DNA of 64,000 bases from a virus: the UHGV virus genome UHGV-1353844; one strand, written 5' to 3'. The notes beneath the pieces are model-generated. The model saw only the letters and a list, made by a program, of their open reading frames with translations. It was not told where the DNA came from and did no database searches. The position numbers and the translations under genes are program-made. Shown here one piece after another: positions 862 to 61,017 of the stretch (the first letter of the stretch is position 1; the number at the start of each line of letters is the position of its first letter).

Positions 862-1779
862 ATGATAGACAATGTGGAATCCAGGATCTCGACGAAGTTG
901 TACGATAAACCCACTATATTGTCCGTAGTTACGACGTCTAAGTGTAACCTAGACTGTAGTTTCTGCGGTGGAGCCTACTACATGAATCGTGAAGATTCGT
1001 CTCGTGCTTTTCAACGCGAACGTATCCTGGAATTACTACAAGAGAATCCAGCTATTAAGGAAATACATTGGACGGGTGGTGAACCGCTACTCGTCCAACG
1101 TAAGATTGAGGATTTCGTTAACGAACTGAAAGTGTCTCATCCGCACCTTGAGCATCACTTGTATACCAACGGCTTAAAACTGCGTAAATCGCATCTTACG
1201 CTGCTAAAAGACTTTGAGCATGTGTTTGTATCAATTGATGGCTACAAACGTTCTGAGCGCCCTTTTATGCGCTTTATTGAAGAGGATAGCCACGAAGCAC
1301 TGGAAGCGTTATACGAACTCGATAACTTCCAAACCTGGGCTGTGATTACGCGTGACCAGTTAGCCGATAAGCGCTGGTATGAAGATATTGTGGATTTACA
1401 TCGTGCGATGTACCACTATCGTCCCCGTGCGTTTTCTCTGATGTTTGATGCCCAAATGCCAAAACCGTTGTCTCCCGATCACATCATGAACTTCGTTTAT
1501 GGTTATTTAAAGATTCAGGAGAATATGGAACGGCTGAACGTCCAAACCGGAGAATCGTGCGGCGTGTCTGTCAGCAAGATTTTCGAAAACGAGTGTAATG
1601 TCTGTAGCGAAGAGTTGTATTTGAACGCAGATGGAACAGAACATCAGCTTCAGAATGCACCGGCTATCTTAAACGGTGGGTGCAATCAGCTTGCTTGCTC
1701 TATCGGGGTAGGTGCTTACGAGTACATTAAACGCGTGATTTATGCAGAGCGTAAAAGGATAAGCAAAGATGAGCAATAA
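862..1779 (+). CDS. radical SAM enzyme with C-terminal auxiliary Cys cluster
   Basis: CNLDCSFC (CX3CX2C) near N-terminus, GGEPLL SAM-binding motif, C-terminal Cys-rich region; SD tggag upstream. Confidence 0.75.
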   Translation: MIDNVESRISTKLYDKPTILSVVTTSKCNLDCSFCGGAYYMNREDSSRAFQRERILELLQENPAIKEIHWTGGEPLLVQRKIEDFVNELKVSHPHLEHHLYTNGLKLRKSHLTLLKDFEHVFVSIDGYKRSERPFMRFIEEDSHEALEALYELDNFQTWAVITRDQLADKRWYEDIVDLHRAMYHYRPRAFSLMFDAQMPKPLSPDHIMNFVYGYLKIQENMERLNVQTGESCGVSVSKIFENECNVCSEELYLNADGTEHQLQNAPAILNGGCNQLACSIGVGAYEYIKRVIYAERKRISKDEQ

Positions 1780-4950: not shown

Positions 4951-5487
4951 TTAGCCACCGACACCCGGTGCAGTGAAGCCATCAAGTTCACCTTCCAGAC
5001 CGCTCAGCGCTACCTTCTCAGGAGCTGGGTTGGAATAAGTGAAGGTGGCAATAGTACCAGCCAGGAATTTAATGTGTGCATCGTTTACTTTGACAGTGTA
5101 AACTTTAGCACCACTATCCCCGTCAGTTTTCTCAATGGTCAGTTCGCTTTCAGCGAAATAGTCATCGACATAACCTTTAGTAACCATTTCTTCGTTCAGT
5201 TTGGTTACAATGGCAGAGTTTTCCAGATCGAGGCTACCGGCTTTTTCGTAAGCTTTGGCACCGATCAGGTCTTGAGAAGCCAGACGAATGTAGTGGAATT
5301 CTTTCTCGCCTTTGAAGTTCTGGCTTTCTGCCTTGGCGGTCAGCGTAATTTTGGTGTTACGACCACCGGTACCGCTGTGCGCTTCGACAGCACCAAAATC
5401 GACATCATCAACCGTCAGATTAGAAGCGGTTCCTGGGTTTTTAGCAATTACAGCTTCGACGAACTGCAGTTTGAAGGTTTTAGCCAT
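4951..5487 (-). CDS. paralog-family protein (HY.RL / ELDGFTAPGVGG C-terminus), likely abundant virion protein
   Basis: 178-aa ORF, strong codon bias, SD gaggt; antisense ORFs 5074-5509 are shadows. Confidence 0.6.
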   Translation of the reverse strand: MAKTFKLQFVEAVIAKNPGTASNLTVDDVDFGAVEAHSGTGGRNTKITLTAKAESQNFKGEKEFHYIRLASQDLIGAKAYEKAGSLDLENSAIVTKLNEEMVTKGYVDDYFAESELTIEKTDGDSGAKVYTVKVNDAHIKFLAGTIATFTYSNPAPEKVALSGLEGELDGFTAPGVGG

Positions 5488-15288: not shown

Positions 15289-16131
15289 TTATTTAAGATT
15301 CCGAACTTCTCTCATCTCGTTACAAAATCTATCAAACAGCTGGGCGTATTCGCCAACGTGAGCTTCTAGCTGTCCAAAAAAGTGGCGTGAAAGTCGTTCG
15401 CTGATTTCTTTTTCGTATTTCTTGAGAACGTGTTTAAAATATTCACCATCTCTCTTAATTTTCTGCGCAAGGGGTTCCAGAACTTTAAGAACCCATGGTT
15501 TGTTTGGGATCAAGAGATTCAGGTTACCTTCAAGATATTTGCTTTGATAAATTATAAATAGATGGTGTTCGTGTTCATCTTTCACTGCGCGAATAAACTC
15601 GGCAGCATCGGCCTCGCTAATATCCTCAACTGTAAATAGCAGAATATTTTCTTTCTCTATGTCATTCAATAGGTTATTTAAAAAAGCGCGATAAGTAGCA
15701 CCTTCATAGTTCACTTTAAGCACGTTGTTTTCAACCAGATAAGTGAATTTGTCGTTGTAAAAAAGGTATAATATCGAACCGATTTTACCTGCCTGTTTGG
15801 GGGTAAGTGGAATCTCGTCTGTGAAGTAAGCGACGTCTTTCGCAGTTGGCTTGTCTTTTAGCCTACAAGTCATTTGATCCGGAATTTCTGGATCTTTAGG
15901 CGTCTCAACAGCCCGTACTAAAATATCCATAACCGCACTAATGAGCTTGTTAGGGAAATCGACCTCGCCTTCTACCCAGAAAATGTTAAACGCTTCTGAT
16001 TTAACTTTATAGTAAAACGTGTACGTGTTTTGTAGCTCAGTGATTTCTTTAATTTGATCCTCAGTAGGGATAGGGGAAATTTTAAACTTGTTGATAACCT
16101 TTTCTTCTTCGGTGAGTTCGAACTGAAACAT
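15289..16131 (-). CDS. hypothetical protein with ADxFxRxV-type domain related to 10164-11330
   Basis: 280-aa ORF; EADAAEFIRAVKDEHEHH segment. Confidence 0.6.
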   Translation of the reverse strand: MFQFELTEEEKVINKFKISPIPTEDQIKEITELQNTYTFYYKVKSEAFNIFWVEGEVDFPNKLISAVMDILVRAVETPKDPEIPDQMTCRLKDKPTAKDVAYFTDEIPLTPKQAGKIGSILYLFYNDKFTYLVENNVLKVNYEGATYRAFLNNLLNDIEKENILLFTVEDISEADAAEFIRAVKDEHEHHLFIIYQSKYLEGNLNLLIPNKPWVLKVLEPLAQKIKRDGEYFKHVLKKYEKEISERLSRHFFGQLEAHVGEYAQLFDRFCNEMREVRNLK

Positions 16132-16142
16132 GCTACTCCTCC

Positions 16143-16586
16143 TTAAATCATTGCTGGGAATTCGAAATCAATCTTATTTACGATCCCGTAATCTTCTTTT
16201 AGTTGAATGTTTAATGTTCCCTGAAATAACTCAAGAGAACCGATGAAGAACGCTGTGTAACAGTTTCCACGAACAGAAAAGGCAAGATCCAATCCCCTTA
16301 AACAGCGTTTTAAGGTATCGTGTTCTTCTTTACTACCGAACAACTGGAAATTGATAACGGTAATCCGTTTGTTAATGATTGCCATTAACCAATCTTTAAT
16401 TCTTCTCGTGGTTATACTCTCTTTAAAATCGTTAGCTTCTGGTAGCCAGGTAACGTGAACAAACGGTGCAGCATAGTCCACGCAAACCTTTTGCTGCCAA
16501 CGTACTTGCATCAAACCACGAATACGATTTGCTAACGTTTCAGAATCACAAAGTAACATAATGCCGTTAGTAGTATTTGGTTTCAT
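16143..16586 (-). CDS. hypothetical protein
   Basis: 147-aa ORF. Confidence 0.6.
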   Translation of the reverse strand: MKPNTTNGIMLLCDSETLANRIRGLMQVRWQQKVCVDYAAPFVHVTWLPEANDFKESITTRRIKDWLMAIINKRITVINFQLFGSKEEHDTLKRCLRGLDLAFSVRGNCYTAFFIGSLELFQGTLNIQLKEDYGIVNKIDFEFPAMI

Positions 16587-16736
16587 AATTGTCCCTCTTT
16601 CTTAACGTAGTCTTCAACTAATTTATCAAACACGATTTTTTATCTTCACCCAATTCACCAGAACAGATAATACGGGTGATAGAACTAATCCTCCTTTCGG
16701 CTATAACTAATAGAGCGAATGTAAATTTCGCTCTCC

Positions 16737-16756
16737 CCTAGGTAATATATATCTGA
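16737..16756 (-). promoter_or_regulatory. candidate phage promoter motif (TCAGATATATATTACCTAGG) downstream of terminator, upstream of hairpin 16712-16734
   Basis: conserved motif. Confidence 0.45.
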
Positions 16757-16802
16757 GAAAAAATAAAAAAGAAAGGTAGTAGGGGCTTAGCCCCTACTAC
16801 CT
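16757..16802 (-). terminator. rho-independent terminator
   Basis: ggtagtagggg-ctta-gcccctactacc hairpin preceded by A-run on plus strand. Confidence 0.65.
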
Positions 16803-16960
16803 AATATTTATTTCATTCCGTTCTGAGAAAGCGTTGTCCCTGTAAGATGCGTAATAACGATCTTAACAGGCAATAGACGCTAACACCACCACACCAGTGA
16901 TGTCTTCTGAAAGTGTCGGTAGCTCGCGAATGCGTACCTTTCCTACCAGTTCAGCCACTA

Positions 16961-17473
16961 TTAACCACCAAAGGTTAAGACGCGATTATCTGCGGTAACG
17001 ATTAAATCGTTGTCTTTTACTACAGCGGCTTCTTCGTCGTTACCGAAAACCAGAACGGAGAATTGGCCTTTATAACCTAACGAGTTGGGTGAAACCTGTA
17101 ACGTTACAGCGTCTTTCCCTACGGTAAATGATTCGTCGGTAAGATCGTCGGGTTGTAAATTACAACCGCAAGCCGCGTTAATTCCGTCGATTAGATCGTG
17201 TGCGGTAAAACCATTACCGGAAACCTTTACCAGAATAGGTTGCTGGTTTAACCACCGCTCTGCGGTTAAACGGTTGTAATAGATTTGTAACGTTCTGTTA
17301 CCAGGACGTTTTATCTTTACAACAGCAGTGGTGTCACGATCCATTTCGTTACTGGTCTTTACGTCGCTGACTTCAACCTCGTTCTCTTGCAGGTCGAGCT
17401 GGAGGTCATGGTTAACCAGTGAAATAACCATGTTAAGTGAAGTTAACGACAAATCAGGCGTGAATTGTTCCAC
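16961..17473 (-). CDS. paralog-family protein (PDLSLTS N-terminus, YYNRL motif); GTG start
   Basis: 170-aa ORF, SD AGGAGG 8 nt upstream of GTG; paralog of 26897-27460. Confidence 0.6.
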   Translation of the reverse strand: MEQFTPDLSLTSLNMVISLVNHDLQLDLQENEVEVSDVKTSNEMDRDTTAVVKIKRPGNRTLQIYYNRLTAERWLNQQPILVKVSGNGFTAHDLIDGINAACGCNLQPDDLTDESFTVGKDAVTLQVSPNSLGYKGQFSVLVFGNDEEAAVVKDNDLIVTADNRVLTFGG

Positions 17474-17572
17474 GTATGGTTACCTCCTATGATTGGGGAG
17501 ACATAAAATGTTGGCTAAAAACATTTCACCCCCCCCCCGATTACGTTTTCAAGCACATTCGCTTGAAAATTA

Positions 17573-18076
17573 TTAACTAATCTTCAAATCTCTTAATGTG
17601 CCGGTTGATTTCATCACGTTTTGGAAAGCAGTGCTAATGTTAGAGGTCCAGTAATAATGTTGACCATTAATAACCTGCTGATAGGCTACCGTACAAGTGT
17701 TGCCGCCTAGATTTACGGTGATGTTAGAAGCTCTCCCACCTTGTAAATAGACCGCTAAACTTGGTTTTGCATCAGCAGCCAATGTGATCAATAGTAGTTG
17801 GATACCAATAAGTGTGCCTACGCCGCAGCTACCAGGATTCTGAATAGTCCCTTTATTTTTCTGCGCTAACGGCCAGTTTGGTCCCACCGCACCCCAAAAT
17901 TTAGCCATTGAATCGCTATATGCAGCAGTTGCGATTTTACAGCCAAGAGATCGGCCCACCATTTGACTCATCATAAAAGGTCTACCCAATCCTAATTTAC
18001 TACCAGCAGCACTCATCCATTGTTCGCCCGTTTCGTTCTTGGCCGAAGAACCGACCCATCCAGATGCTACCCCCAT
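17573..18076 (-). CDS. fibre-associated protein sharing N-terminal ~45 aa with the Gly-rich protein (possible tip adhesin variant)
   Basis: GWVGSSAKNETGEQWMS N-terminus paralogous to 18137-18919. Confidence 0.55.
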   Translation of the reverse strand: MGVASGWVGSSAKNETGEQWMSAAGSKLGLGRPFMMSQMVGRSLGCKIATAAYSDSMAKFWGAVGPNWPLAQKNKGTIQNPGSCGVGTLIGIQLLLITLAADAKPSLAVYLQGGRASNITVNLGGNTCTVAYQQVINGQHYYWTSNISTAFQNVMKSTGTLRDLKIS

Positions 18077-18136: not shown

Positions 18137-18919
18137 TTAAACACGTGAACCATATATTGCACCTACTGCGTCCCATCTTGGCGCATTACCTCTAACGGCT
18201 GCACCAGCGGCTCCGCCGTTATATTCTGTACCGTTACCATGAGTATTACATCTTCCTCCAGCAGCACCGACATTACCACCCGAACCGCCTGTATATGCAC
18301 TAAGAGACCCCTCACCAACAGATCCTCTACCAGGAGCGGAAATAGTACCAGCAGCTGCACCGGAACTCATATGTGAGGAAGACCCACCAGCACCGAATGG
18401 GCGACCACCGCCACCACCAAATATTAGTCTACCCCTGTTACCGCCGCCACCGCCGCCACCGCCTCCGGCAATAGCGCCACGGTTGGTTATACGCAGTCTG
18501 TTTCCTATTCCGTTCTGTATTGCGGTTCCACCTGCACCGCCTGGTGAGTTAGAACCGCCGTTGCCTCCTCTGCCGTATACTGTAACCCCAGGATTGATGA
18601 TGAGTGTAATATACGAATTTGGAAGATTGCTAGGGAATTCTAAACAAGGAACCCCGCTACTATAAGACACTAAATCCCCTGTAATGGTCACAACGACAGC
18701 ATTAGAGCCTATAGAACGTAAATAGTTAATAAGCGTATCTTTATTGTAATTGTGATTAGCCCCGATCGAATACTGAACCTCTTTTGATTTTCCCGCCAAT
18801 TGCGACATCCAGCCTGGAACCGGCACACCAAGTGTGCGCATCGCGCCAGACATCCAATCGTTACCAGTTTCAGCTTTTGCTGAAGAACCAATCCAACCAC
18901 CTACGCCGACAACTGCCAT
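18137..18919 (-). CDS. glycine-rich protein immediately downstream of tail fibre (possible adhesin or tip protein)
   Basis: poly-Gly tracts (GGGGGGGGGN, GGGGRPFGAGG); start overlaps fibre stop (TAATG). Confidence 0.6.
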   Translation of the reverse strand: MAVVGVGGWIGSSAKAETGNDWMSGAMRTLGVPVPGWMSQLAGKSKEVQYSIGANHNYNKDTLINYLRSIGSNAVVVTITGDLVSYSSGVPCLEFPSNLPNSYITLIINPGVTVYGRGGNGGSNSPGGAGGTAIQNGIGNRLRITNRGAIAGGGGGGGGGNRGRLIFGGGGGRPFGAGGSSSHMSSGAAAGTISAPGRGSVGEGSLSAYTGGSGGNVGAAGGRCNTHGNGTEYNGGAAGAAVRGNAPRWDAVGAIYGSRV

Positions 18920-21900
18920 TAGGATCTTCCTTTAATTTCGTTAACCTCTTGACGCAACGCTTTCATACCCTCTACTAACAGCGCAATAACGCCATTGTAG
19001 TTTAGACGTAAACGTTTTTCGCCTGAAATGGCATCATCATCCTCAGACACAAGTTCAGGTAACGCTTCTAATGCGTCTTGAGCAATTAGACCTACCGAAG
19101 TGTTCCAACCGTCGTCTGGATGTTGAACCTCGTACAGATAGCCGGTAAGCGCTTCTAACCGATCCAAAGCCTTATCCAGCTTCACCAGATTACGTTTGTT
19201 GCGACGGTCAGAACGAATCTGTACGTCGTTAAACGAACCGTTACCGTTGCTAGAAATGTTATGACCAAAGGTTACTTGACCGTTAGAGTTATTAAAATAC
19301 AACGGACGTAGTCCGTTCCAGGAACCCGTTGCGGCTTGTCCGGAGTCGGTTACTAAGAAATAGGTATTGGCACCATCATTACGTAAAATGAAACCGCAGC
19401 TACCGTAAGCGATTCGGAAATCAGCATACTTCGTAACCAGTTTACCGTTAACCGTTAAATCGCCAGTGACAGTACCGCCGCTGTTCTTCAAAAACAGCGC
19501 ATCAATCCAGCCTGCAAATCCTGACTTATTGATGTATAAATTTCCATCATTTGCCAGAATGCCGCCACCCGGCGTCTTGAGAGGCTGACTCACATTTTGC
19601 AGCGTCAGCACACCATTCAATTGACCGCCAGATAATGGCAACGCCCCAACATCCGCAGCAGTTGGCTTGTTTTTCGTATTGTAAGCGCGACGCCAACCTG
19701 GTGAGTAAGCATCACCGTTATTTACGTAGATAAACTCCGCATTAGTGAGTGCGCCGCCGACGCTCGTCGTTGTGGGGGTCGTTATACGGATCGTGTAGTT
19801 GTTTGCGCTGTTACTAATCACTTCTATAACAGCCCCAGCTAACGGAATAACACCACAACCCGTCTCGCTGTTCGGTATGGACGCACTAGCAGCATAAGCC
19901 CATGCACAGCGAGCAACCCATGATTTTGTGGTAAACGCGCCGTTATTTTGCAATAACGTCACTAGCTGTGCTGTAGTTATTGCGCCGCCGTCTTTACCAG
20001 TCTCCAACCAACCAGTGGGCGAAGCCGGACAACCTATATCGGCAGGCCCTAACGATATATTTCTAGTACCGTCAAATGCGATACCGTTAATGGTACGCGC
20101 TGTCTGCAACTTTGTTGCCGTGGCTGCGTTTCCGGTAGTCGACTGATTACCCGTCTGGTTTACACCGGGCAGACTAATGTCTTGCGAACCGTCAAAGTTA
20201 ACACCGCCGATCTTACGTGCTGTTTGTAACTTAGTAGCGGTCGCTGCATTACCTGTCGTATTCTGGTTGCCTTGCTGGTTAACCCCCGGTAAATTGATAT
20301 CCCCAGTACCGTCAAAGGTAACGCCGCCGATTCTGCGAGCGGTTTTCAGTTTCGTCGCGGTAGCGGCATTGCCAGTAGTATCCTGATTACCGGTGGTATT
20401 TACACCAGGAATACTGTCACGGGCAGTATAAACTTGTGCCCAATCTGACCACGGCGCATCAGCCGTATCGCGTCGACTACGAATATAAACGGGTGCGTGT
20501 GCACCACTCGTGCCCGACCAACCAATTAACAACTCACCTTCGCCTAGCGCATTAGCACCACCTAAGTGCAGCAAGTTACCATAGGCGGTTGGATAACCGT
20601 TATTGTAAACTTCGTACATCTGGATACCAGGTGTACCCTTGTTCGACCCGGTCAGAGCGGTAACCCGTCCACGACCTACCAAGGTGTTGATATTGATGTC
20701 TCCAGAGCCATCGAATTTCACACCGTTAATATTTCTGGCGGTTTGAAGTTTAGTGGCTGTCGCGGCGTTACCTGTGGTGTTTTGATTACCTTGTTGGTTA
20801 ACACCTGGGAGGTTAACGTCGCCGCTGCCGTCGAAAGCGACCCCGCCAATTCTACGCGCAGTCTGGAGCTTAGTGGCGGTTGAAGCATTGCCGGTTAACT
20901 CACCTGCTAACCCTTTTGCAAAGGTCTGTTTCTCTGCCCAAGTGTGGGCTGCGTTCAACACAGGCATCTGTCGTGGCGTAATCGTACGGCTACCCTTCTC
21001 GCCAGCGATACGTACTGCAAAGAAGCGATAGTTAGCAGTAGACACTGTACCGCGCCAGACCAACATACTCCGACCAGTACCGGTGTCCTCTGACGCCCCT
21101 ACGAGAATACTGACCAAGTTACCGTCAATAACACCCCAATCCATTCCCGCAGGAATGTTTTTCATGGTATTCAACGGTGTACTTATCATCTGGCCAGGAA
21201 CGAAATCGAAGGTTTGCCAGTCTAACGGATCGACCTTGGCAGCAACCCCACCGATCCCTAAAGCCAACGGGAGTGAATAGGATGTGAAAATCTCTCGCCA
21301 TTCGCTCCAGGCGTTTCCTGTACGAATTCGTTGGAACTTGCGACCTTTCGTAGTTGCGCCTGTACCGTATGTGGTATAATTTTGTTCAACGCCTGAACCG
21401 TCTAAGCGTAAGGTAACTTCGCAAACACCTAACAAGGTTGCGCCAGCAGAGTCTGTTAACGGACCGTCAGTAGCCTCACCGGTAACACTAAAACGACCAG
21501 GTTTAGTTAAGTCATTAAAGCTACCCTTATAGTAGGCACCGTCTACCTGATACCCAACTTGAATCCAATCTTCCCACTGTGGATTAGACGCATCCCAAGT
21601 CGCAGTCAACCCACGGACATACATCGTACCACGACGAGTGGTGTAACGTTGCATACGTCCGTAGAGACCACCTTCCATTACTTCTAATACACCTTGAGCA
21701 TTACCACCTTCTTCGGGATAATGACGATCGAACGTCGCAAGAGAAGAACTGGAGTTACGCCACTGACCCATGTGTTCAACACCACCTAAAGTGTTAAGGT
21801 CAATAGTGGTGGAGAGCGGACGGTTCGCGGTAGTTGTCATTCTCCAGGGCGACCAAGGGCCGTTAGTACCGTTCCAGGTTCCTGTTAAACGACGAGTATA

Positions 21901-23385
21901 GACGTTACCGTTACGTATGGTAAAACGTTGGCTTCCGCTGTAGTTACCTGCTTTGAATACCTCTAAGTAACCAACTGCATCGTCTTCCGGGAAGTTCTTT
22001 GCAATTGTTGCATTCGTAGACGTGGCTTTAGACCAGACACCCATAAACGCTTCGACTGGGCCGAAGGTGTTGATATCCGCATCTACTGCCATTTCCCCAT
22101 TAAACTTCAAATACGTCTCTGCTGACAACCCGATGTTCTTCGCGAAGGTGACTTTATCTGGAATATCGGCACCGTTAGAACTGCGTTGCATAGCACCCGC
22201 AGCTTTATCAACAGTGGTTTTCAAACCCAGGAAGTTAATGATATCTGCCGTCGACCCTTTCGCTAACAAATCACGCGCAGTCGAGGTGAAATCCGCTAAC
22301 CCTACCTGATTACTACCGGTAAAGTAAGGGAGTTTGTTTGCAGCGGTGGTGACTGCGGCAATCGCTGTCAGTAACGGACTTAACGGCTGTTTACCCGCGA
22401 GTTGGTTCGTCATCGTTGTCGCAAAGTTAGGATCGTTTCCTAACGCAGCTGCAATTTCTGATAACGTATCTAACGTCTCGGGTGAAGAGTCCACTAATTC
22501 AGCAATCGCTTGCCGTACCCATGCGGTCGTTGAGACGCTCGTGTCGTTAGAATCCGAAGCAGGTGTTGGTGCTTTTACCACACCGGTAAAAGTTGGGTTG
22601 TGACGGTTTGCTTTTAACTGCAAATCTTCATTTAACTGCTTAACCGTTGACGGCGTAGCCGCTTCAGTAACAGAGTCACTGCTTAAGGTATTATTAAGTC
22701 TAACGATACCTTTACTGGTCGTTGTTGCATCAACGTTACCTTTTGCAGCGATTTCTTCTGCACGCTTAGCCGCTGCCTCAGAACGCGTTGCCGCATTCTC
22801 TGCGGTTTCTTTGTCTGTGGTAACTTGCGTTGCTGTAGCTTCTACAGCGGCTTTTGACGACTCTACCGACGCGACAGCTTCGTTAACTGCCGTAAGCGAC
22901 TGTTCGACTTGACCGGCTTGTGTGGCAACAGTTTCTGCTTTCTTCGTAACGGTAGTCACCGCTTGTGTGACGTTGGCCTCGCTTGCCGCTACCGCTTGCG
23001 CTTTCTCATTAACGGACACAACCTGGGTATCTACCGCCGTTTTCGCGGCTAACACTTCAGTGTGTTTTGTACCGACTTCAGTTGCTTTTTCGGTTACAGT
23101 TTGCGCTTGTTGAGCAACTGTAGCCGCAACGGTGTCAGTTTGTTGTTTTGCTGTTTCTGCTAAATTCTTTGCTTGTGTAGCCTGAGTTGCAGCTTCTTGT
23201 GATTGTGTTGCTGCTGTTTGTGCATCAGACACCGCATTACGTACGGTGTCAATATCTGCAACGATCTCACGGACAGGTAACTTATAATCTTTCTCATCCT
23301 TGGAAAAAAGTAAAACACCTTCACCTATATCCCCGGTGTATGGACGTAAATCGTGTAAACGAATTTTCTTTACCGCTTTAGCCAT
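18919..23385 (-). CDS. long tail fibre protein with N-terminal anchor, A/T/Q-rich coiled coil, five NTTGNAATATKLQTAR repeats and C-terminal intramolecular chaperone (S74-type autoproteolytic) domain
   Basis: 1488-aa ORF; C-terminal SDRRNKRNLVKLDKALDRLEALTGYLYE segment; repeat motif typical of phage fibre repeats. Confidence 0.85.
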   Translation of the reverse strand: MAKAVKKIRLHDLRPYTGDIGEGVLLFSKDEKDYKLPVREIVADIDTVRNAVSDAQTAATQSQEAATQATQAKNLAETAKQQTDTVAATVAQQAQTVTEKATEVGTKHTEVLAAKTAVDTQVVSVNEKAQAVAASEANVTQAVTTVTKKAETVATQAGQVEQSLTAVNEAVASVESSKAAVEATATQVTTDKETAENAATRSEAAAKRAEEIAAKGNVDATTTSKGIVRLNNTLSSDSVTEAATPSTVKQLNEDLQLKANRHNPTFTGVVKAPTPASDSNDTSVSTTAWVRQAIAELVDSSPETLDTLSEIAAALGNDPNFATTMTNQLAGKQPLSPLLTAIAAVTTAANKLPYFTGSNQVGLADFTSTARDLLAKGSTADIINFLGLKTTVDKAAGAMQRSSNGADIPDKVTFAKNIGLSAETYLKFNGEMAVDADINTFGPVEAFMGVWSKATSTNATIAKNFPEDDAVGYLEVFKAGNYSGSQRFTIRNGNVYTRRLTGTWNGTNGPWSPWRMTTTANRPLSTTIDLNTLGGVEHMGQWRNSSSSLATFDRHYPEEGGNAQGVLEVMEGGLYGRMQRYTTRRGTMYVRGLTATWDASNPQWEDWIQVGYQVDGAYYKGSFNDLTKPGRFSVTGEATDGPLTDSAGATLLGVCEVTLRLDGSGVEQNYTTYGTGATTKGRKFQRIRTGNAWSEWREIFTSYSLPLALGIGGVAAKVDPLDWQTFDFVPGQMISTPLNTMKNIPAGMDWGVIDGNLVSILVGASEDTGTGRSMLVWRGTVSTANYRFFAVRIAGEKGSRTITPRQMPVLNAAHTWAEKQTFAKGLAGELTGNASTATKLQTARRIGGVAFDGSGDVNLPGVNQQGNQNTTGNAATATKLQTARNINGVKFDGSGDININTLVGRGRVTALTGSNKGTPGIQMYEVYNNGYPTAYGNLLHLGGANALGEGELLIGWSGTSGAHAPVYIRSRRDTADAPWSDWAQVYTARDSIPGVNTTGNQDTTGNAATATKLKTARRIGGVTFDGTGDINLPGVNQQGNQNTTGNAATATKLQTARKIGGVNFDGSQDISLPGVNQTGNQSTTGNAATATKLQTARTINGIAFDGTRNISLGPADIGCPASPTGWLETGKDGGAITTAQLVTLLQNNGAFTTKSWVARCAWAYAASASIPNSETGCGVIPLAGAVIEVISNSANNYTIRITTPTTTSVGGALTNAEFIYVNNGDAYSPGWRRAYNTKNKPTAADVGALPLSGGQLNGVLTLQNVSQPLKTPGGGILANDGNLYINKSGFAGWIDALFLKNSGGTVTGDLTVNGKLVTKYADFRIAYGSCGFILRNDGANTYFLVTDSGQAATGSWNGLRPLYFNNSNGQVTFGHNISSNGNGSFNDVQIRSDRRNKRNLVKLDKALDRLEALTGYLYEVQHPDDGWNTSVGLIAQDALEALPELVSEDDDAISGEKRLRLNYNGVIALLVEGMKALRQEVNEIKGRS
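20040..20420 (-). repeat. imperfect ~120-bp tandem DNA repeats inside fibre gene encoding the GNAATATKL repeats
   Basis: three successive units ending ccgtcaaa(g)ttaacaccgccgat / ccgtcaaaggtaacgccgccgat. Confidence 0.6.
20693..20895 (-). repeat. second block of the same fibre repeat
   Basis: units gccatcgaatttcacaccgttaat / gccgtcgaaagcgaccccgccaat. Confidence 0.55.
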
Positions 23386-33593: not shown

Positions 33594-34367
33594 TTAAAAG
33601 ATAAAGTGGCCGGTTAATGGTTCTACCTCAACTCCACCCATAGACGGTGGGGCTGTGTATGGAAACGTGAGGCGAACAGTTGCGCCTTTCAGATAAGCAA
33701 TACGGAAATACGTGGTTAGCAGTGCGTTTCCGTAAGTACAGTCGTTATAGAAAAAACCTTCGGTGGCAAACGTCTTTTCATTGATTTTCGAATAGACTAA
33801 GATACCTTCAACCTTACCGTCTTTACGACAACACAGCCCTTCTGCCGCACCTACGGCTAACAACCCTAAACAGTGCGTGTCGAGGCTGACATTAACAACC
33901 TTAGGAATCGTAAACGTCTCTTCTAACGTTAGGGATTCAACGTCGACCACGTCAGGTAAGTCAGTACGTACTTCTGGCTTCTCAGTAATCGTAAGGTCAT
34001 AATCGATAGACGTTGGTTGCATACCCAAAAACGTCATTAACTGATCACGACGTTTTAGGTCATTAGCAGGGTAGGTAACGTCAAACATCTTCACGTTTAA
34101 CAGACGTTTGAGTTGGGCGAAGTTGATGTTCTTCTTCGCAAACACAACGATTGCGGACATATAGAAAATCTTACCGTCTGCACGCCCTGAAAAGATGCCC
34201 TGTAATTGGTTAGTATTCGAAAGGATGATAAAGGTAGGGTCTTCAGATTCCCGAATGATTTCCTTTTCCATTAACCCTTTGCGTACACGGGTTAACGAAA
34301 CCATTTTACCTTCTACACCAATCGCTAAATGGTCATTACGATAATCGTGGATATCCACTATACGCAT
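33594..34367 (-). CDS. hypothetical protein translationally coupled to dam
   Basis: 257-aa ORF; start overlaps dam stop by 1 nt. Confidence 0.6.
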   Translation of the reverse strand: MRIVDIHDYRNDHLAIGVEGKMVSLTRVRKGLMEKEIIRESEDPTFIILSNTNQLQGIFSGRADGKIFYMSAIVVFAKKNINFAQLKRLLNVKMFDVTYPANDLKRRDQLMTFLGMQPTSIDYDLTITEKPEVRTDLPDVVDVESLTLEETFTIPKVVNVSLDTHCLGLLAVGAAEGLCCRKDGKVEGILVYSKINEKTFATEGFFYNDCTYGNALLTTYFRIAYLKGATVRLTFPYTAPPSMGGVEVEPLTGHFIF

Positions 34368-35182
34368 TAGAGCACTCCTAACAATTCCGTTACCGTTTTA
34401 CGAGCAGCACCTGACGCACCCATGTATCGCCCTACTTCTACAGAACGCCATTCGAACCCGTAATAAATCTCACGCGTTAGTAACGTATCTGCATTGGACA
34501 ACACAACGCTATTCCCCTTCTCAACCTGCTTAAACAGCGCTCTGGCGAGTTCTCGATGGTCAGCCTGGGAAAACTCCTTCCGATGGTATTGGGCGTGTTT
34601 AGCGGTCTCTGAGAGCGGTATATAAGGTGGGTCTGCGTAAATCACGCTGTCTTCCGGTGTACGCTCTAAAACTGTTCGGAAATCTTCACAAACAATTTCT
34701 AAGTATTCCGGTTCTTGACAACGTTTAGCCCAACCACGAATCTCTTCTAACGGGTAATACACACCGTTAGGATAGCGACCAAACGGAACGTTAAAACCAC
34801 CGCTGCCGTTGTAACGACACATCCCGTTAAAACCGTGACGCATTAAATACAGAAACATTGCAGCACGGTCTAACGGAGCCATATCCGTTTCGCGATTAAA
34901 CAGTTCTCGTCTCTCCATATACTTAATACAATCGTTACCGTCTTCGAATAGCGGTTTCGACTTTAAGATAAGTTCTTCAGGTTGGTCTTTCGCCACGTTC
35001 AGCAACTGAATTAAGTCAGGGTTAGAGTCAGCAAGAATGTAACGTTTATAACGTGTGTTCAAAAACACCGACCCTGCACCAACAAACGGTTCAACGAATG
35101 TTGTACGTTCAGGTAAGACTTGTAATAAGGTGTCGATAATCCGCGATTTGCCACCCATCCACTTTATAATTGGTTTATGCAT
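34367..35182 (-). CDS. dam: DNA adenine methyltransferase (Dam, GATC N6-A)
   Basis: near full-length similarity to E. coli Dam: KWMGGKSR, VEPFVGAGSVFLN, FLYLMRHGFNGMCRYN, DPPY motif. Confidence 0.9.
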   Translation of the reverse strand: MHKPIIKWMGGKSRIIDTLLQVLPERTTFVEPFVGAGSVFLNTRYKRYILADSNPDLIQLLNVAKDQPEELILKSKPLFEDGNDCIKYMERRELFNRETDMAPLDRAAMFLYLMRHGFNGMCRYNGSGGFNVPFGRYPNGVYYPLEEIRGWAKRCQEPEYLEIVCEDFRTVLERTPEDSVIYADPPYIPLSETAKHAQYHRKEFSQADHRELARALFKQVEKGNSVVLSNADTLLTREIYYGFEWRSVEVGRYMGASGAARKTVTELLGVL

Positions 35183-36161
35183 TAATTCCGCCTTGTAACG
35201 ATGACATTTCGTCGCCTAACACTAACTCGACGCGGTTTTTCCGACGCTCCCAACTGACGACATCGTCGTCGCGCACTAAAACAAATTCGTACTCGTAGGG
35301 ACGGAATTTAAACAAATCTACAGCCAGGTGTCTAAATGCTGGGTTGTTATTGTAACACCCTATTTCTAATGGTGCTGCTGTTGTCGATGCAATCTGTAAA
35401 GCACGGTACAACAACGCACGCCCAATCCCACGGCCCCGGTGTGATTCACTTACCGCAATGGCTTTTAGTTCGCACTCGCTAAGATTGCGTGATTTAACTT
35501 GCACCACACCCACAATGTCGTTACCGTCCATCCAAACGTAAGTGTAGTGATTGACGTGACGCACTAACTCCACCAGCGTTTCAACTTGCGGCATTATTTG
35601 TCGAGAACGCGTCACAGGGTCAGCATTGATGTTTTCAACAACGCTAGTGCCAAACAACGTCATGAGCTGTTCACGTTGTGCTCTGGTTAAGTCTTTATAG
35701 AAGTCGCCGGAGACGTTCTTCACGTTCGTCGGTAAAGTGACATCCAGTAGCTTACGCGTACCTAAACGATATGCTGTGTGGGTATGTCTAAACCCTAAAT
35801 CGTTAAGCTCAGCAATTTCTTCCACACCTCTGGCAATTCGGTTAAGGTACGTAAACCCAGTATAGTCAAGTACCAATAGAAGGCTCAGTTTGTTCAAACA
35901 CCCAGGTACAATTTCATGCATATACAAGCAGTGTAACGTTGGGTCACCGTAAATGTGTTTTGTGATGATAAACCCTTGGATTGTTTTTCCTTTTTGTAAA
36001 GAGAACGTATTCAGCTCAGTATTGCACAGTGCTTCACGAATCGCCGCACCGTTAGGCCCCGTTAAACATGCCTGAAGCTGAGGATTGCGAATATCTCTAC
36101 GGGTTAAGCGTCCTACGGTTAAATCAGAAGAGGTTCTTTCTATCGTTTTACGATATACCAT
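35175..36161 (-). CDS. protein with C-terminal GNAT acetyltransferase domain
   Basis: HRGRGIGRALLYRALQ acetyl-CoA binding motif. Confidence 0.6.
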   Translation of the reverse strand: MVYRKTIERTSSDLTVGRLTRRDIRNPQLQACLTGPNGAAIREALCNTELNTFSLQKGKTIQGFIITKHIYGDPTLHCLYMHEIVPGCLNKLSLLLVLDYTGFTYLNRIARGVEEIAELNDLGFRHTHTAYRLGTRKLLDVTLPTNVKNVSGDFYKDLTRAQREQLMTLFGTSVVENINADPVTRSRQIMPQVETLVELVRHVNHYTYVWMDGNDIVGVVQVKSRNLSECELKAIAVSESHRGRGIGRALLYRALQIASTTAAPLEIGCYNNNPAFRHLAVDLFKFRPYEYEFVLVRDDDVVSWERRKNRVELVLGDEMSSLQGGINA

Positions 36162-36247: not shown

Positions 36248-36931
36248 CTACCAAAGCTTAGAACTAGTGAATGCTGCACTAGAATCTGGAACTTTGCCTC
36301 TTAATTTATCACGCAGAAGTTCAAAGAACATGCGATGATAAGCGTAATATTTTTCCAACCGATTGTATTCAATCAGGTTTTCTAACGCCGGATGAAAGCG
36401 AAGATGTTTGTTAGGACTGGTAAGGGAAAACGGAACGACTTCTTCATTAAGCAAGATAGGATACTTAACACTATCGCCCATTTCAGCATACAACATTTTG
36501 GTGTCGAAAACGAAATAAGCCGTTGGGTGAAAGCCTAACCACGTTGAAGCCTCAACAAAGAAGTCAGTCAATTTACTAGCAATCTGGCTGATCATCTTAT
36601 CGTCTGATTTAAACATCAGGCGCAGGAAAATCTCGCTAATGACTGAACCCGTAAGCAGTTTTTCTTTGTGGATACCTGGCACGACTGCCAGTACCTCATC
36701 GTCGAGTCGACAGACAAGCGTGTACAGGTCGAATACCGGGTAATGGTAAATATCGATCGTTAAACTCGCACGCGGAGTGTAACTTAAGATTTTATCCCCG
36801 TGTATTTCTGTGGCGGGCGGCATAAGCGCAAGCTTCTTGCTAGGCCCACCCTGTTTAACTTCTGCTTCCTTAGTATCAATCGGTTTTTCTACAGTTTCTT
36901 TAACTTCAGTTTTCTTAGTTCTCGGTGCCAT
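36248..36931 (-). CDS. hypothetical protein
   Basis: 227-aa ORF. Confidence 0.6.
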   Translation of the reverse strand: MAPRTKKTEVKETVEKPIDTKEAEVKQGGPSKKLALMPPATEIHGDKILSYTPRASLTIDIYHYPVFDLYTLVCRLDDEVLAVVPGIHKEKLLTGSVISEIFLRLMFKSDDKMISQIASKLTDFFVEASTWLGFHPTAYFVFDTKMLYAEMGDSVKYPILLNEEVVPFSLTSPNKHLRFHPALENLIEYNRLEKYYAYHRMFFELLRDKLRGKVPDSSAAFTSSKLW

Positions 36932-36984
36932 GATATTTAATCCTCATCTGTAGAACAAGTCGTAAAGAGATTACGATGTAATCT

Positions 36985-58012: not shown

Positions 58013-58106
58013 GTAAGGGCCAGATTAAGTTTTAATAATGGTACATATCTTTAGTCTTAAATGTATTTTTTCCATAAAGTCTCCTTTAAACCAACTGACA
58101 GTCTCC

Positions 58107-58137: not shown

Positions 58138-58180
58138 AAGAAAAAAAAATAAAAGGTCTAAGCCCCGAAGGGCTTAGACA
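58138..58180 (-). terminator. terminator of capsid-like gene (bidirectional)
   Basis: gtctaagcccc-gaag-gggcttagac with A-run and T-run. Confidence 0.7.
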
Positions 58181-58194
58181 CTTTTTATTCGGTA

Positions 58195-60480
58195 TTATTT
58201 ACCAGCTTTGTCTTTACCGTCGCCAGCAACATTACCTGCTACACCACCTTCGGTTTGTTTCTGACCGTTCTGTTCTACAGAAACGTTGTAAGCCAGTTTT
58301 TCTTCAACCAGTTTGGTGATGCCTTTAACCCAAATCAGACCAGTGATCGGGCAGTGGCAGATATGCGCGTTACGCGGCTGTACAGCCAGTTCTTTAGAAG
58401 TAGAACCGTTACGCTGGATGTTGATGTTGGTAACCATGATCGGAGACCAGAAGTGGTTACCCCAGTTCAGTACGCAGTAGGAACCATCGTCCGCAGTCGG
58501 AACTTTCAGGAACCATTGCAGACGACGAGTCCAGGAATCGTCAGCTGCGTTGTAGATACGCCAGCGGTCATCGTTGGTGGTAACGACTTCGTATTCATAA
58601 CGGTCGCCCAGCAGACGTTGGTCGCCCTGAACCAGCAGCAGCATAGATGCAGTCGGTTCGTCAGTTGCGATAATAACTTTCGGCAGAATGTCCGGATCAG
58701 CGGTCAGCAGGCGCAGTGCAGGAATGAAACGAGAATCCTGGATAGCCTGAGTTACCTGGCTACCGATACGCTGCAACAGACCCTGACGAGCGTTGATCAG
58801 CGCTTCTTTGGTATCCAGAGACTGAACAACTTCATCGACTTTGTAGTCAGACTCTTTGAACCACGGAGCAACCCAGTGACGGCCCAGACCACGGATGGCC
58901 GGTTTGTCCCACGGAGTGATCATCGCAGCGGCTGCGTTACGTACTGCTTCGGTGTAAGACAGCGTCTGAGTAATCGCCAGCTGTTCGTTACGGATGTTCA
59001 CCGCAGAGATCAGGTCGTCCAGACGTTCAGTGTCGTCGTATTCAACACCAACTGGAGACTTGGTCAGAATCGGAGAACCGTATTGCAGTTTGTAGTTTTC
59101 CTGTTCCCAAATTGGGTCAAGCAGCAGACCCTGGGTACGACGGTTTTCGTTGGTACGAGTACCATCGAAGCGCCAGCCCATCAGTTCGAGCTTCAGGCCG
59201 TCCAGGATAACTTTACCGGTGCCAGACTTGGTATCAACTTTGTTACCAGTTGCATCGTACAGACCTTCGATTTCCAGTTTGTGGCCGGAAATGTCTACTT
59301 TACCACCGAACTGGCCGCTGGTGAACAGGGACATGGTGATGGTGATAACGTAGCGCAGGGTGTAGGAGTTCTGACCCAGTGCTTGCAGAGCCGGAATAGC
59401 TGCACCAGTCCAGTCGGTGGTTTTCGCATTCAGAGAGAACGCGGTACGACGGAATTGCAGAACCAGTTCACGGCCGTCACCTTCAGCAGGACGCTGGAAG
59501 GTTGCGAACTGCATGTCACGAACGTGCAGTTTGATGAATTTACCCGCTCTCGCTTCTTCGGTCGGTTTACGTACAGAAATCAGCAGGCTGCCCAGAGCAC
59601 AACCCGGTGCGATTTCATCAGTTTCATCGTAACCTTCCTGAACGATACCCGGATGCGCAGACAGCTGGAACAGGTTCAGCGTGTCGTTTGCAAAGCTCAG
59701 GTAGTTAGTCGGATACGGAGGTACACGACCCAGGCGAACGGTTTCGTTCGGAACCAGTTCTTCGCTTACGAAGTATTCCTGGTTTTCACCGGTTTCCATT
59801 ACGTAAGGAACGATGTTGATCGCTTCGTCCTGGAGAACGGTGTGGTCAGTCAGTGCGTTGTGCAGCGGACGACGATGGTCTTCAACCACGTCTTTGCTCA
59901 GCAGCGCGTTCATGATACCGCGAGAAACGGTAGTCACTTTAGTACGTACGGTAATACCAACATCGTTGGTGTCAACGGTAATGGTCGGGAACAGTGTTTC
60001 AGCAAACTTGGACTGAGTTTCCAGAGCACGTACGTTCAGGGTCCAGGTCAGGCCCAGGTTTTTGTCGTAGTCTTTGTTGCTATAGTATTCCTGAGCAACA
60101 ACCATGCGCTCACGACCCCAGTCACCACCTTGCGCACCAGGGATACCAATATCCAGGTTATACTTGCTGTGGAATTCCGGCTTAGCGTATTCCTGGGCAA
60201 CACGTTCTTGCAGGTCTTTACCGTGGTTAGCTGCGCCCAGAATCATTGCGGAGGCGACAGTCGCAGCATGAGACATTTTCTTGCCGCCAAAAGCGTTGGC
60301 ATAGTGCTGTGATGCTTCGTCACGCAGAGCGCCAAATACTTTTGCGTTGCTACGTACGGACTCGCCTGCAACAATCGTATTCCACATTTCGCTGGCGGTG
60401 TTGTTGCCGATGACGTTTTGGGCCAGACTAGTACCGGCTTCTACGAGTTTCTCTAAATTAGAGATTCGGGTATCTTTCAT
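58195..60480 (-). CDS. major capsid protein candidate (jumbo-phage-sized) or other very abundant virion protein
   Basis: 761-aa ORF with extreme optimal codon bias (CTG, CGT, GGT, AAC) that generates a 685-aa antisense shadow ORF. Confidence 0.75.
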   Translation of the reverse strand: MKDTRISNLEKLVEAGTSLAQNVIGNNTASEMWNTIVAGESVRSNAKVFGALRDEASQHYANAFGGKKMSHAATVASAMILGAANHGKDLQERVAQEYAKPEFHSKYNLDIGIPGAQGGDWGRERMVVAQEYYSNKDYDKNLGLTWTLNVRALETQSKFAETLFPTITVDTNDVGITVRTKVTTVSRGIMNALLSKDVVEDHRRPLHNALTDHTVLQDEAINIVPYVMETGENQEYFVSEELVPNETVRLGRVPPYPTNYLSFANDTLNLFQLSAHPGIVQEGYDETDEIAPGCALGSLLISVRKPTEEARAGKFIKLHVRDMQFATFQRPAEGDGRELVLQFRRTAFSLNAKTTDWTGAAIPALQALGQNSYTLRYVITITMSLFTSGQFGGKVDISGHKLEIEGLYDATGNKVDTKSGTGKVILDGLKLELMGWRFDGTRTNENRRTQGLLLDPIWEQENYKLQYGSPILTKSPVGVEYDDTERLDDLISAVNIRNEQLAITQTLSYTEAVRNAAAAMITPWDKPAIRGLGRHWVAPWFKESDYKVDEVVQSLDTKEALINARQGLLQRIGSQVTQAIQDSRFIPALRLLTADPDILPKVIIATDEPTASMLLLVQGDQRLLGDRYEYEVVTTNDDRWRIYNAADDSWTRRLQWFLKVPTADDGSYCVLNWGNHFWSPIMVTNINIQRNGSTSKELAVQPRNAHICHCPITGLIWVKGITKLVEEKLAYNVSVEQNGQKQTEGGVAGNVAGDGKDKAGK

Positions 60481-60492
60481 TTGTTTAATACC

Positions 60493-61017
60493 TTAATGAG
60501 ATAAATGACATGCGTATAATTGCGTCAGCACTTCGTTAGCGGCAAACTGCGTTGAGGTACTGAAGCAGTCATCCACGACGCGAGTCTTGGTACGCATATA
60601 TTTAAAAAGTTCTGCGCAGAACATCTTTTTCGCAGCGTGGTCTTCACCCGAAGAAAAACCCGAACCGGACTTCGCTTCTGCAAATGACGCCACAATCGTA
60701 TCACCACGTTGGGTAAAGACCCAGCGTAAGCGACAAGGAATTGTTTCCCCATATAAATCGTCAAGGGAAACCTTTTCGCCTGATTCGACCAGACGTAACA
60801 CCTGATCATAATATTTACCTGGAAGTACAGGCGGAGCCATTAACGCTTTATAAATAGCAGAACGACTTACTTCAGGTATAATGATAGAACTGAAACCATT
60901 CGGACAGTCATATAACCAGTTAAAGAACCCTGCCTGGAGCAATTCTACACTTTTAACGGCAGCGCCTTTATCTATGTTAGGCTGAACTTCCCACGGTGGA
61001 CTAAAACGAATTTGCAT
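60493..61017 (-). CDS. hypothetical protein upstream of capsid-like gene
   Basis: 174-aa ORF, ATG start with SD GGAG. Confidence 0.6.
   Translation of the reverse strand: MQIRFSPPWEVQPNIDKGAAVKSVELLQAGFFNWLYDCPNGFSSIIIPEVSRSAIYKALMAPPVLPGKYYDQVLRLVESGEKVSLDDLYGETIPCRLRWVFTQRGDTIVASFAEAKSGSGFSSGEDHAAKKMFCAELFKYMRTKTRVVDDCFSTSTQFAANEVLTQLYACHLSH

Follow-up and report, generated by a model that had tools for sequence, protein, structure and literature searches.

The major capsid protein gene of an Enterobacteriaceae jumbo myophage of the phiKZ/SPN3US group and its antisense shadow

The gene at positions 58195–60480, on the minus strand of the 64,000-nucleotide stretch of virus genome UHGV-1353844 that was analysed here (the window), almost certainly encodes the major capsid protein (MCP) of an Enterobacteriaceae jumbo myophage of the phiKZ/SPN3US group, with a genome of ~222 kb; the gene would be very highly expressed, and the long ORF on the opposite strand is a passive shadow of it. 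A phiKZ-like jumbo MCP had been proposed in the first-pass annotation, and Pfam, PHROG, homology to SPN3US gp75 and Foldseek all agree with this proposal. The identification is correct but already known, given the Pfam family, a studied orthologue and the deposition of an identical protein (DAH65960.1, 'MAG TPA: major capsid protein [Caudoviricetes sp.]').

A full-length member of the phiKZ capsid protein family

The ORF begins with ATG, ends with TAA and specifies a precursor of 761 aa (84.5 kDa), placed by homology in the phiKZ gp120/SPN3US gp75 family. Its match to the Pfam family PhiKZ_MCP (PF25620; E = 9.1e-208, 691.8 bits against a cut-off of 27) spans residues 72–726 of the protein and positions 2–634 of the 635 in the profile, making it a full-length member. 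PHROG 3231, 'major head protein', was matched with an E-value of 5.7e-279, and sequence matches in the PDB included phiKZ gp120 and other jumbo-phage capsid proteins, with an E-value of 5.8e-34 for the phiKZ type.

The AlphaFold2 model of the protein is of moderate confidence (mean pLDDT 64, pTM 0.48, core pLDDT 75–90) and its global TM-scores to phiKZ gp120 are low (0.3–0.4), so that the evidence for the fold consists of local similarity detected by Foldseek together with sequence homology. The best Foldseek matches were the capsids of phiKZ (8y6v, E = 6e-33), phi-kp24 (8bfl, 2e-31) and S6, with generic HK97-fold capsids and encapsulins ranking after them; at E ≤ 0.001, the matches comprised three jumbo-phage capsids and 3bjq, which is labelled merely 'phage-related protein'. 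The model contains a spine-like long helix at residues 483–519 and propeptide helices at residues 3–106. With moderate confidence, the mature protein is predicted to consist of a core of HK97 fold that carries large insertions, followed by a C-terminal tail (residues ~735–761) that is disordered and varies among orthologues.

In size alone, a 761-aa protein might also be a contractile tail sheath of the phiKZ gp29 type, SPN3US-type sheaths measuring ~680 aa, and the first-pass annotation had kept a tail sheath as its fallback. When the HK97 and sheath folds were compared, as it had suggested, HK97-type capsids were matched and sheaths were absent from the 50 best Foldseek matches; no sheath family was matched in Pfam or PHROG; and a genome 96% identical to the present one carries a separate 685-aa gene, whose product shares 81% identity with gp256, the sheath of SPN3US, and is recognised by Pfam phiKZ_gp29PR (E = 7e-71). 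The tail sheath was dismissed for want of a family or fold match and on account of this separate gene, and we regard its probability as negligible.

The gene order (helicase, 174-aa ORF, MCP, 336-aa ORF, RNAP subunit) is the same in SPN3US and Asesino. A Shine-Dalgarno-like AAGG (60491–60494, minus strand), read from the sequence 10 nt 5' of the ATG, overlaps the stop codon of the preceding 174-aa ORF, and an intrinsic terminator called strong (58140–58179, minus strand), with a 10-bp stem containing 6 G-C pairs, a TTCG loop and a T-run, begins 15 nt past the stop codon of the capsid gene. Near the gene, sigma-70 promoter-like sites did not exceed their frequency in shuffled sequence, as expected of a phage that transcribes with RNA polymerases of its own. 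The 64-kb window gave no Rfam match and no tRNA.

An SPN3US-like genome that is also filed as a plasmid

Genome content beyond the window was read from a relative of 221,873 bp, 96% identical over 58.7 kb of the window. This genome and another close relative of 222,441 bp exceed 200 kb, in agreement with the jumbo-phage size on which the first-pass reading depended. The homologues of SPN3US proteins in the relative include the sheath, tube, terminase, S80 protease, portal, internal head proteins and pieces of both the virion and non-virion RNAPs; its Peptidase_S80 protein is 81% identical to gp245, and phiKZ_IP internal head proteins and PhiKZ_VTX are also present. Split RNAP genes, one of the signatures for which a search had been advised, were found both in the window, where the ORF at 55216–56991 matches the phiKZ gp123 non-virion RNAP subunit (PDB 7ogp, E = 1.8e-17), and in the 96%-identical relative, where six more SPN3US genes named 'RNA polymerase beta subunit' have homologues at 67–86% identity.

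The candidate chimallin of the relative is a 612-aa protein (NZ_CP173450.1, 137326–139164, minus strand), 55% identical to SPN3US ACQ60_gp244 (617 aa, YP_009153316), with a very high CAI (0.648), as expected of an abundant protein. It matched no Pfam family and no PDB sequence, solved chimallins included. ACQ60_gp244 is probably the 'gp244' chimallin of PMC9365700, the gene numbering being ambiguous; YP_009153538, the accession given for chimallin in a bioRxiv preprint, is a 240-aa protein that adjoins the protease and is not chimallin-sized. No tubulin/FtsZ family was among the Pfam matches listed (25 of 46 families, for 62 ORFs of 220–480 aa). The PhuZ tubulin is a non-core gene of Chimalliviridae, and both Bapsvirus and Erskinevirus are without phuZ (PMC12768965).

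We place the phage in the phiKZ/SPN3US group and, in all likelihood, in the family Chimalliviridae; its lineage is most probably the recently proposed genus 'Bapsvirus', which comprises Chimalliviridae jumbo phages of ~220–249 kb from Salmonella, E. coli and Shigella assemblies that are syntenic with Seoulvirus at low nucleotide similarity (PMC12768965). The match is one by description: genome size, hosts, the synteny with Seoulvirus and a low DNA similarity to that genus are all as described. The ~222-kb elements of the lineage are filed as 'plasmids' or contigs in assemblies of E. coli, Enterobacter, Salmonella and Shigella. At 90% identity, the capsid protein falls into a cluster of 378 members, many of them from Salmonella and Shigella isolate assemblies, in which the contigs measure 221–227 kb. 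Its cluster mates WP_311830816.1 and WP_404998921.1, located on ~222-kb 'plasmids', are 99.0–99.3% identical in DNA; neither these copies nor DAH65960.1 differ biologically from the protein described here. NCBIfam lacks a model for this capsid family, which is why the copies in bacterial genomes carry the label 'hypothetical protein'.

The breadth of that cluster would also suit a true plasmid or phage-plasmid, with the capsid gene on a stably maintained episome, and so would the 99%-identical copies that complete assemblies of E. coli and Enterobacter list as circular 'plasmids' (221,873 and 222,441 bp). Circular assembly is, however, expected of a terminally redundant, headful-packaged genome. 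PGAP lists no replication-initiator, partition, integrase or relaxase gene on the 222-kb record, PLSDB types it as non-mobilizable, and it carries the full gene complement of a virulent jumbo phage like SPN3US. Moreover, two studies explain such contigs by carrier-state or persistent infections with non-temperate jumbo phages (PMC12768965; bioRxiv 10.1101/2024.12.31.630880). We thus consider a plasmid improbable and treat the element as a virulent phage genome. This question concerns lifestyle, and the product of the gene is the same either way.

Orthologues and predicted maturation

The closest studied counterpart, SPN3US gp75 (YP_009153369.1, Seoulvirus), is 78% identical over 733 residues and of similar length (766 versus 761 aa); the two share flanking genes, an aligned A-X-E site, a mature mass of 70.4 kDa, extreme codon bias (CAI 0.716 in SPN3US) and an open antisense frame. 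The ~22% of residues that differ lie chiefly in the propeptide and the C-terminal tail, which is short and Lys/Gly-rich here but longer and Gly/Thr-rich in relatives. The SPN3US genome is larger (240 kb versus ~222 kb), and DNA identity is only ~78–83% in conserved genes. Asesino gp91 and the phiEaH2 capsid protein (Erskinevirus) show 79–80% identity, synteny and a similar codon bias, and their cleavage motif, VAREYY instead of VAQEYY, is counted as the same; unlike the present phage, however, Asesino and phiEaH2 infect Erwinia, and the deposited phiEaH2 gene model begins at an ATG further downstream. phiKZ gp120 and the capsid protein of Klebsiella phage phi-kp24 are likewise PF25620 members and HK97-fold subunits of jumbo shells, but identity to them is only 21–24%, their hosts are different and synteny is not kept.

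In SPN3US, gp75 outnumbers every other virion protein and forms a T=27 shell, 130 residues are removed from it at an A-X-E site, and both the A-X-E rule of the prohead protease and the gp75 cut site have been mapped (PMC5694885, PMC10052503). Virion abundance and the steps of cleavage are transferred here from this orthologue. A129-Q130-E131 (60088–60096, minus strand) aligns column for column with A128-T129-E130 of SPN3US, the A and E of the motif are invariant in 4/4 sequences, and neither E131 nor Y132 is substituted in any of 38 homologues. Judging by this alignment, the capsid protein carries a putative propeptide that ends in the prohead-protease motif A/S/G-X-E, and its cleavage is predicted. 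The putative propeptide, delimited by alignment to the 130-residue one of gp75, covers codons 1–131 (60088–60480, minus strand) and is mainly helical; the predicted mature protein (58198–60087, minus strand), delimited by the aligned cut site, comprises residues 132–761 (630 aa), and its calculated mass equals that of mature gp75.

By analogy with SPN3US and phiKZ, the precursor would be made late in infection and ~1,560–1,615 copies would build a T=27 prohead, within which the S80 prohead protease would cut after E131, shedding the 131-residue propeptide to leave the 70.4-kDa shell subunit.

Extreme codon bias and expected expression

In the capsid gene, CTG accounts for 64 of 70 Leu codons, CGT/CGC for 40 of 42 Arg, GGT/GGC for 59 of 59 Gly, AAC for 38 of 42 Asn and GAA for 44 of 48 Glu, while ATA, AGG, GGA and GGG do not occur. 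Nc is 33.5, compared to 50.8 ± 5.3 in the other ORFs of the window. With weights computed from 30 highly expressed E. coli K-12 genes (ribosomal proteins, rpoA, tufA, fusA), CAI reaches 0.769, whereas the mean of the reference genes is 0.684 and that of the other 67 ORFs in the window 0.401 ± 0.074 (z = 5.0). For 18 of 18 degenerate amino acids, the top codon is that of the highly expressed E. coli genes (r = 0.97). Sharp-Li weights gave 0.704 versus 0.307 ± 0.067, and the conclusions are the same under the K-12-derived weights. The bias is thus as extreme as the first-pass annotation had claimed, although its wording, almost exclusively E. coli-optimal codons, went slightly too far, the single best codon being used at 70% of positions, good codons at 88% and rare ones at 3.7%. 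Over the propeptide (codons 1–131) the bias is weaker, with a CAI of 0.495 as opposed to 0.757 for the mature protein.

A genome-wide ranking by CAI in the complete relative places the MCP first, followed by the homologues of gp53 and gp54, the candidate chimallin and a group including the tail tube; it follows known protein abundance. From this ranking and, by analogy, from SPN3US proteomics, we infer very high expression of the capsid gene. The capsid protein would be required in the greatest molar amount of all phage proteins, and translational selection would therefore have shifted synonymous choice in its gene towards the codons that abundant host tRNAs decode.

The capsid gene also lies in the most G+C-rich region nearby (0.50, against ~0.44–0.46 in neighbouring 2-kb bins), as might be seen if the bias stemmed from local composition, or from recent acquisition of the gene out of a host-like source, without translational selection. 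Local composition is at odds with the codons preferred, which end in T (GGT, CGT, GTT, GCT, TCT) and A (GAA, AAA), third-position composition being little changed and GC3 not shifted. Recent acquisition is at odds with vertical inheritance, since this is a core phage gene and its orthologues in SPN3US, Asesino and phiEaH2 are equally biased (CAI 0.69–0.72), and bias of this degree is otherwise confined to genes with abundant products. On the codon pattern, the orthologue bias and the link to abundance, we dismissed a compositional or horizontal-transfer origin as very improbable and retain translational selection.

An antisense frame opened by codon choice

The 685-aa antisense ORF described in the first-pass annotation exists: it starts with TTG, occupies 58255–60312 of the plus strand and shares codon boundaries with the capsid gene, so that its stops correspond to sense TTA, CTA or TCA. 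Only two such codons occur in the capsid gene (codons 9 and 57); because TTA, CTA and TCA, the reverse complements of the three stop codons, are shunned, the in-register antisense frame stays open for 685 codons. With the protein fixed and synonymous usage set to the window average, the probability of a 704-codon open antisense run is 10^-17.6, and the longest run in 5000 simulations was 211. The view that codon usage created the shadow ORF is therefore upheld, its length being beyond chance under average usage and fully explained by the bias.

An open frame ~10^17.6-fold less likely than average codon usage predicts might equally mark a true overlapping gene on the plus strand, the odd codon usage then arising partly from dual coding, and long translated antisense ORFs have reportedly been found in other bacteria. 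Yet avoidance of three rare codons yields the open frame arithmetically, and the composition of the antisense product (13% Val; 9–10% each of Phe, Thr, Gln and Arg; 0.6% Lys) reflects the codons favoured on the sense strand. The product has no Pfam or PHROG match, and the frame, although fully open also in SPN3US and Asesino, is broken by 3 in-register stops in phiEaH2. The capsid gene has undergone many synonymous substitutions, nearly every one of which replaces the antisense residue (16/16, 173/183, 164/172 and 196/204), and identity between orthologues is 0.55–0.59 in antisense versus 0.78–0.79 in sense. The ORF starts with TTG, and promoter-like sites are no commoner than in shuffles. The substitution pattern indicates that the antisense ORF is not under purifying selection and is a by-product rather than a gene. 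Given the arithmetic, the absent homologues, the phiEaH2 stops and the substitutions, a real antisense gene was dismissed as scarcely credible, and its transcription and translation during infection into a lineage-specific overlapping protein is exceedingly doubtful. In a milder version, the open frame of this by-product may have some effect, for example that antisense transcription is tolerated without premature termination.

Implications

As a discovery, the gene carries little weight, being a core structural gene with an orthologue known from proteomics and cryo-EM. It does provide a textbook case of a very long antisense ORF as a pure artefact of codon bias, and hence a negative control for gene finders. 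In addition, codon adaptation orders the genes of this phage according to how abundant their products should be, and it points to a few uncharacterised proteins that are probably abundant, such as the 178-aa DUF7941 protein encoded at 4951–5487. In isolate assemblies, where it is annotated as a 'hypothetical protein' on 'plasmids', the capsid gene is a clean marker for misfiled jumbo-phage genomes.

A phiKZ-like major capsid protein

The minus-strand ORF at 58195-60480 encodes a 761-aa protein that matches the Pfam family PhiKZ_MCP (PF25620) from end to end (E=9.1e-208, 691.8 bits; cut-off 27) as well as PHROG 3231, "major head protein". Its identity to the capsid protein gp75 of SPN3US (Seoulvirus) is 78%, and to the capsid proteins of Asesino and phiEaH2 (Erskinevirus) 79-80%, with further sequence matches to solved jumbo-phage capsid proteins, phiKZ gp120 among them. 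The first-pass annotation had proposed, from protein size, a jumbo phiKZ-like major capsid protein or possibly a tail sheath. An AlphaFold2 model built from 38 homologues, of moderate confidence (mean pLDDT 64; 75-90 in the core), contains a 37-residue helix compatible with the HK97 spine helix, and a Foldseek search of the PDB ranks the capsids of phiKZ (E=6e-33), phi-kp24 and Staphylococcus jumbo phage S6 highest, followed by many HK97-fold capsids and encapsulins. By contrast, sheath structures are absent from the best 50 matches, and a distinct homologue of the SPN3US sheath gp256 (81% identity) is encoded by the complete relative of the window, the E. coli element NZ_CP173450.1; the sheath reading is thus refuted and the capsid interpretation supported. 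The low-confidence segments of the model (residues 108-155 and 166-218) lie directly past the predicted cleavage site; such stretches are usual in capsid proteins modelled without the lattice. The order of genes (DnaB-like helicase, 174-aa ORF, capsid gene, 336-aa ORF and an RNA polymerase [RNAP] subunit matching the phiKZ non-virion RNAP gp123 in the PDB) is the same as in SPN3US and Asesino.

In the SPN3US virion, gp75 is more abundant than any other protein, with 1,560-1,615 copies per T=27 shell. The prohead protease gp245 cuts it after an A-X-E motif, and it thereby loses a 130-residue propeptide and decreases in mass from 83.9 to 70.4 kDa (PMC5694885, PMC10052503). The window protein has A129-Q130-E131 in the alignment columns of A128-T129-E130 of SPN3US, E131 and Y132 are invariant in 38 homologues, and the predicted masses of the precursor and mature forms are 84.5 and 70.4 kDa. 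By orthology with gp75, the window protein would likewise build the shell after cleavage of its propeptide. A Shine-Dalgarno-like AAGG of the capsid gene overlaps the upstream ORF's stop codon, and a canonical intrinsic terminator is located 15 nt past the capsid-gene stop codon. Between this terminator and the next gene lies a 16-codon ORF (58025-58075, minus strand; MEKIHLRLKICTIIKT) preceded, 6 nt upstream, by a perfect AAGGAG Shine-Dalgarno sequence.

Codon bias and the antisense open frame

The capsid gene is dominated by CTG for Leu (64/70), CGT/CGC for Arg (40/42), GGT/GGC for Gly (59/59), AAC for Asn (38/42), GAA for Glu (44/48) and ACC/ACT for Thr (55/59), and ATA, AGG, GGA, GGG, CTA, CCC and TCG do not occur in it. 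Its effective number of codons is 33.5, compared to 50.8±5.3 in the other ORFs of the window. Using codon adaptation index (CAI) weights derived from 30 E. coli K-12 genes with high expression (rpoA, tufA, fusA and ribosomal protein genes), the capsid gene scores 0.769, whereas the other 67 ORFs average 0.401±0.074 (z = 5.0 for the capsid gene) and the reference genes themselves 0.684. The preferred codon coincides with that of the reference set for all 18 of 18 amino acids, and relative synonymous usage correlates with the set at r = 0.97 (r = 0.72 for the rest of the window). Thus, the reported bias toward E. coli-optimal codons stands, although the wording "almost exclusively" is slightly generous, with 70% best, 88% good and 3.7% rare codons. 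In 4 of 4 orthologues, the first ~130 codons, which encode the propeptide (60088-60480, minus strand, in the window), are less biased: adaptation there is 0.40-0.69, compared to 0.69-0.76 for the mature part. Both antisense stops of the window's capsid gene fall in this propeptide-coding part.

The capsid genes of SPN3US, Asesino and phiEaH2 share this bias, which is not a simple GC3 shift. In the complete relative, where the genome-mean CAI is 0.318±0.092 (202 ORFs), the highest values listed belong to the capsid gene (0.710) and the homologues of the internal head proteins gp53 (0.706) and gp54 (0.681), followed by the chimallin candidate (0.648), tail tube (0.548) and sheath (0.459). In SPN3US proteomics, gp75, gp53 and gp54 have the top three abundance indices, above sheath and tube (PMC5694885). 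The capsid-gene bias is a textbook case of translational selection acting on genes with the highest expression; such bias is described for phage structural genes generally (PMC2266997). A 178-aa ORF (4951-5487, minus strand; CAI 0.555, or 0.660 with empirical weights) ranks second in the window for codon adaptation; in it, CTG makes up 85% of Leu codons and TTA, CTA and TCA are absent. Its product hits DUF7941 and PHROGs labelled virion structural protein, and is probably an uncharacterised, abundant virion protein.

Opposite the capsid gene, a 685-aa ORF spans 58255-60312 on the plus strand, both ORFs being as originally described. Because its triplet boundaries are identical to those of the capsid gene, its stops can arise only opposite sense TTA, CTA and TCA codons, the reverse complements of the three stops. 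In the capsid gene only codons 9 and 57 are of this kind, the latter being the stop that ends the 685-aa frame. The other 67 ORFs use TTA and CTA for 41% of Leu codons and TCA for 17% of Ser codons. With such usage, 66 Leu and 33 Ser codons would all escape the three triplets with a probability of 10^-17.6, and the longest open run in 5000 back-translations was 211 codons, compared to 704 observed. The length of the antisense ORF is thus far above chance and completely explained by codon bias, in agreement with the initial view of it as a by-product. As a gene it is ruled out: Pfam and PHROG searches returned no matches, the antisense frame of the phiEaH2 orthologue contains 3 stops, and antisense residues are unconstrained. 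Synonymous changes in the capsid gene alter the antisense residue in 16 of 16 cases relative to the E. coli copy (99% identical) and in 173 of 183 relative to SPN3US; since these frequent changes are nearly all antisense-altering, identity to SPN3US drops to 0.56 in the antisense frame, versus 0.78 in sense.

Other genes of the window

Two neighbouring, slightly overlapping radical-SAM genes (862-1779 and 1769-3103, plus strand) are unusual jumbo-phage cargo; the 444-aa product resembles radical SAM/SPASM peptide (RiPP) maturases (TIGR04115, E=5.6e-36; PapB family, 7.5e-32; both below the curated cut-offs). A Dam-family adenine methyltransferase (34367-35182, minus strand; TIGR00571, E=1e-75, above cut-off) is followed by a GNAT-domain protein (35175-36161, minus strand), and the two may serve phage DNA modification against host restriction. 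The 1488-aa tail-fibre gene (18919-23385, minus strand), with a T4 gp34-like trimerisation domain and a C-terminal S74 intramolecular chaperone, is likely a host-range cassette. This gene, especially ~18.9-21.8 kb, is the main region where alignment to the E. coli element is poor or fails altogether. The element also carries a ~370-bp insertion (63909-64280), missing from the window at ~36927-36935, which encodes an XRE-family transcriptional regulator (63926-64285) that could be relevant to persistence.

A jumbo phage lineage deposited as plasmids

The window aligns to 27.6-90.2 kb of NZ_CP173450.1 with 96% identity over 58.7 kb. This element encodes homologues of the SPN3US tube gp255 (89% identity), large terminase (81%), S80 protease gp245 (81%), portal gp81 (75%), gp53 and gp54 (69% and 59%), two DNA polymerases (76-80%) and seven RNAP beta-like pieces (67-86%); the latter bear out the expectation of split RNAP genes. 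It also encodes a homologue (55%) of a 617-aa SPN3US protein that is probably the chimallin of PMC9365700. The numbering "gp244 = chimallin" for SPN3US is ambiguous in the literature (NC_027402.1, 220023-220745 versus 15768-17621): YP_009153538, cited as chimallin in a bioRxiv preprint, is a 240-aa virion protein adjoining the protease, whereas RefSeq locus tag ACQ60_gp244 (YP_009153316) is chimallin-sized, at 617 aa. No replication, partition or integrase genes are named in the PGAP annotation of the element.

The exact capsid protein is deposited in NCBI as DAH65960.1, "MAG TPA: major capsid protein [Caudoviricetes sp.]", and the family lacks an NCBIfam model. At 90% identity, the protein's cluster comprises 378 members, many of them on 221-227-kb contigs of isolate assemblies of Salmonella (serovars Chester, Kentucky and Enteritidis) and Shigella, including Shigella flexneri. 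E. coli 98232 and Enterobacter ludwigii each have a circular "plasmid" (NZ_CP173450.1, 221,873 bp, and NZ_CP134650.1, 222,441 bp, respectively) with DNA 99% identical to the gene, which is labelled "hypothetical protein" in both. The lineage is filed in RefSeq and PLSDB as ~222-kb "plasmids" with nearly all genes "hypothetical". The capsid-gene finding is a correct, ordinary annotation, the gene and its family having already been described and, evidently, the phage lineage too. Seoulvirus and Erskinevirus are classified in Chimalliviridae, and by size, hosts and synteny the lineage fits the proposed genus "Bapsvirus" (PMC12768965). Such contigs have been interpreted as non-temperate jumbo phages infecting persistently or in a carrier state (PMC12768965; bioRxiv 10.1101/2024.12.31.630880), and the plasmid and contig deposits of the lineage fit this published phenomenon of carrier-state "BAPS" and "persistent virulent phage".
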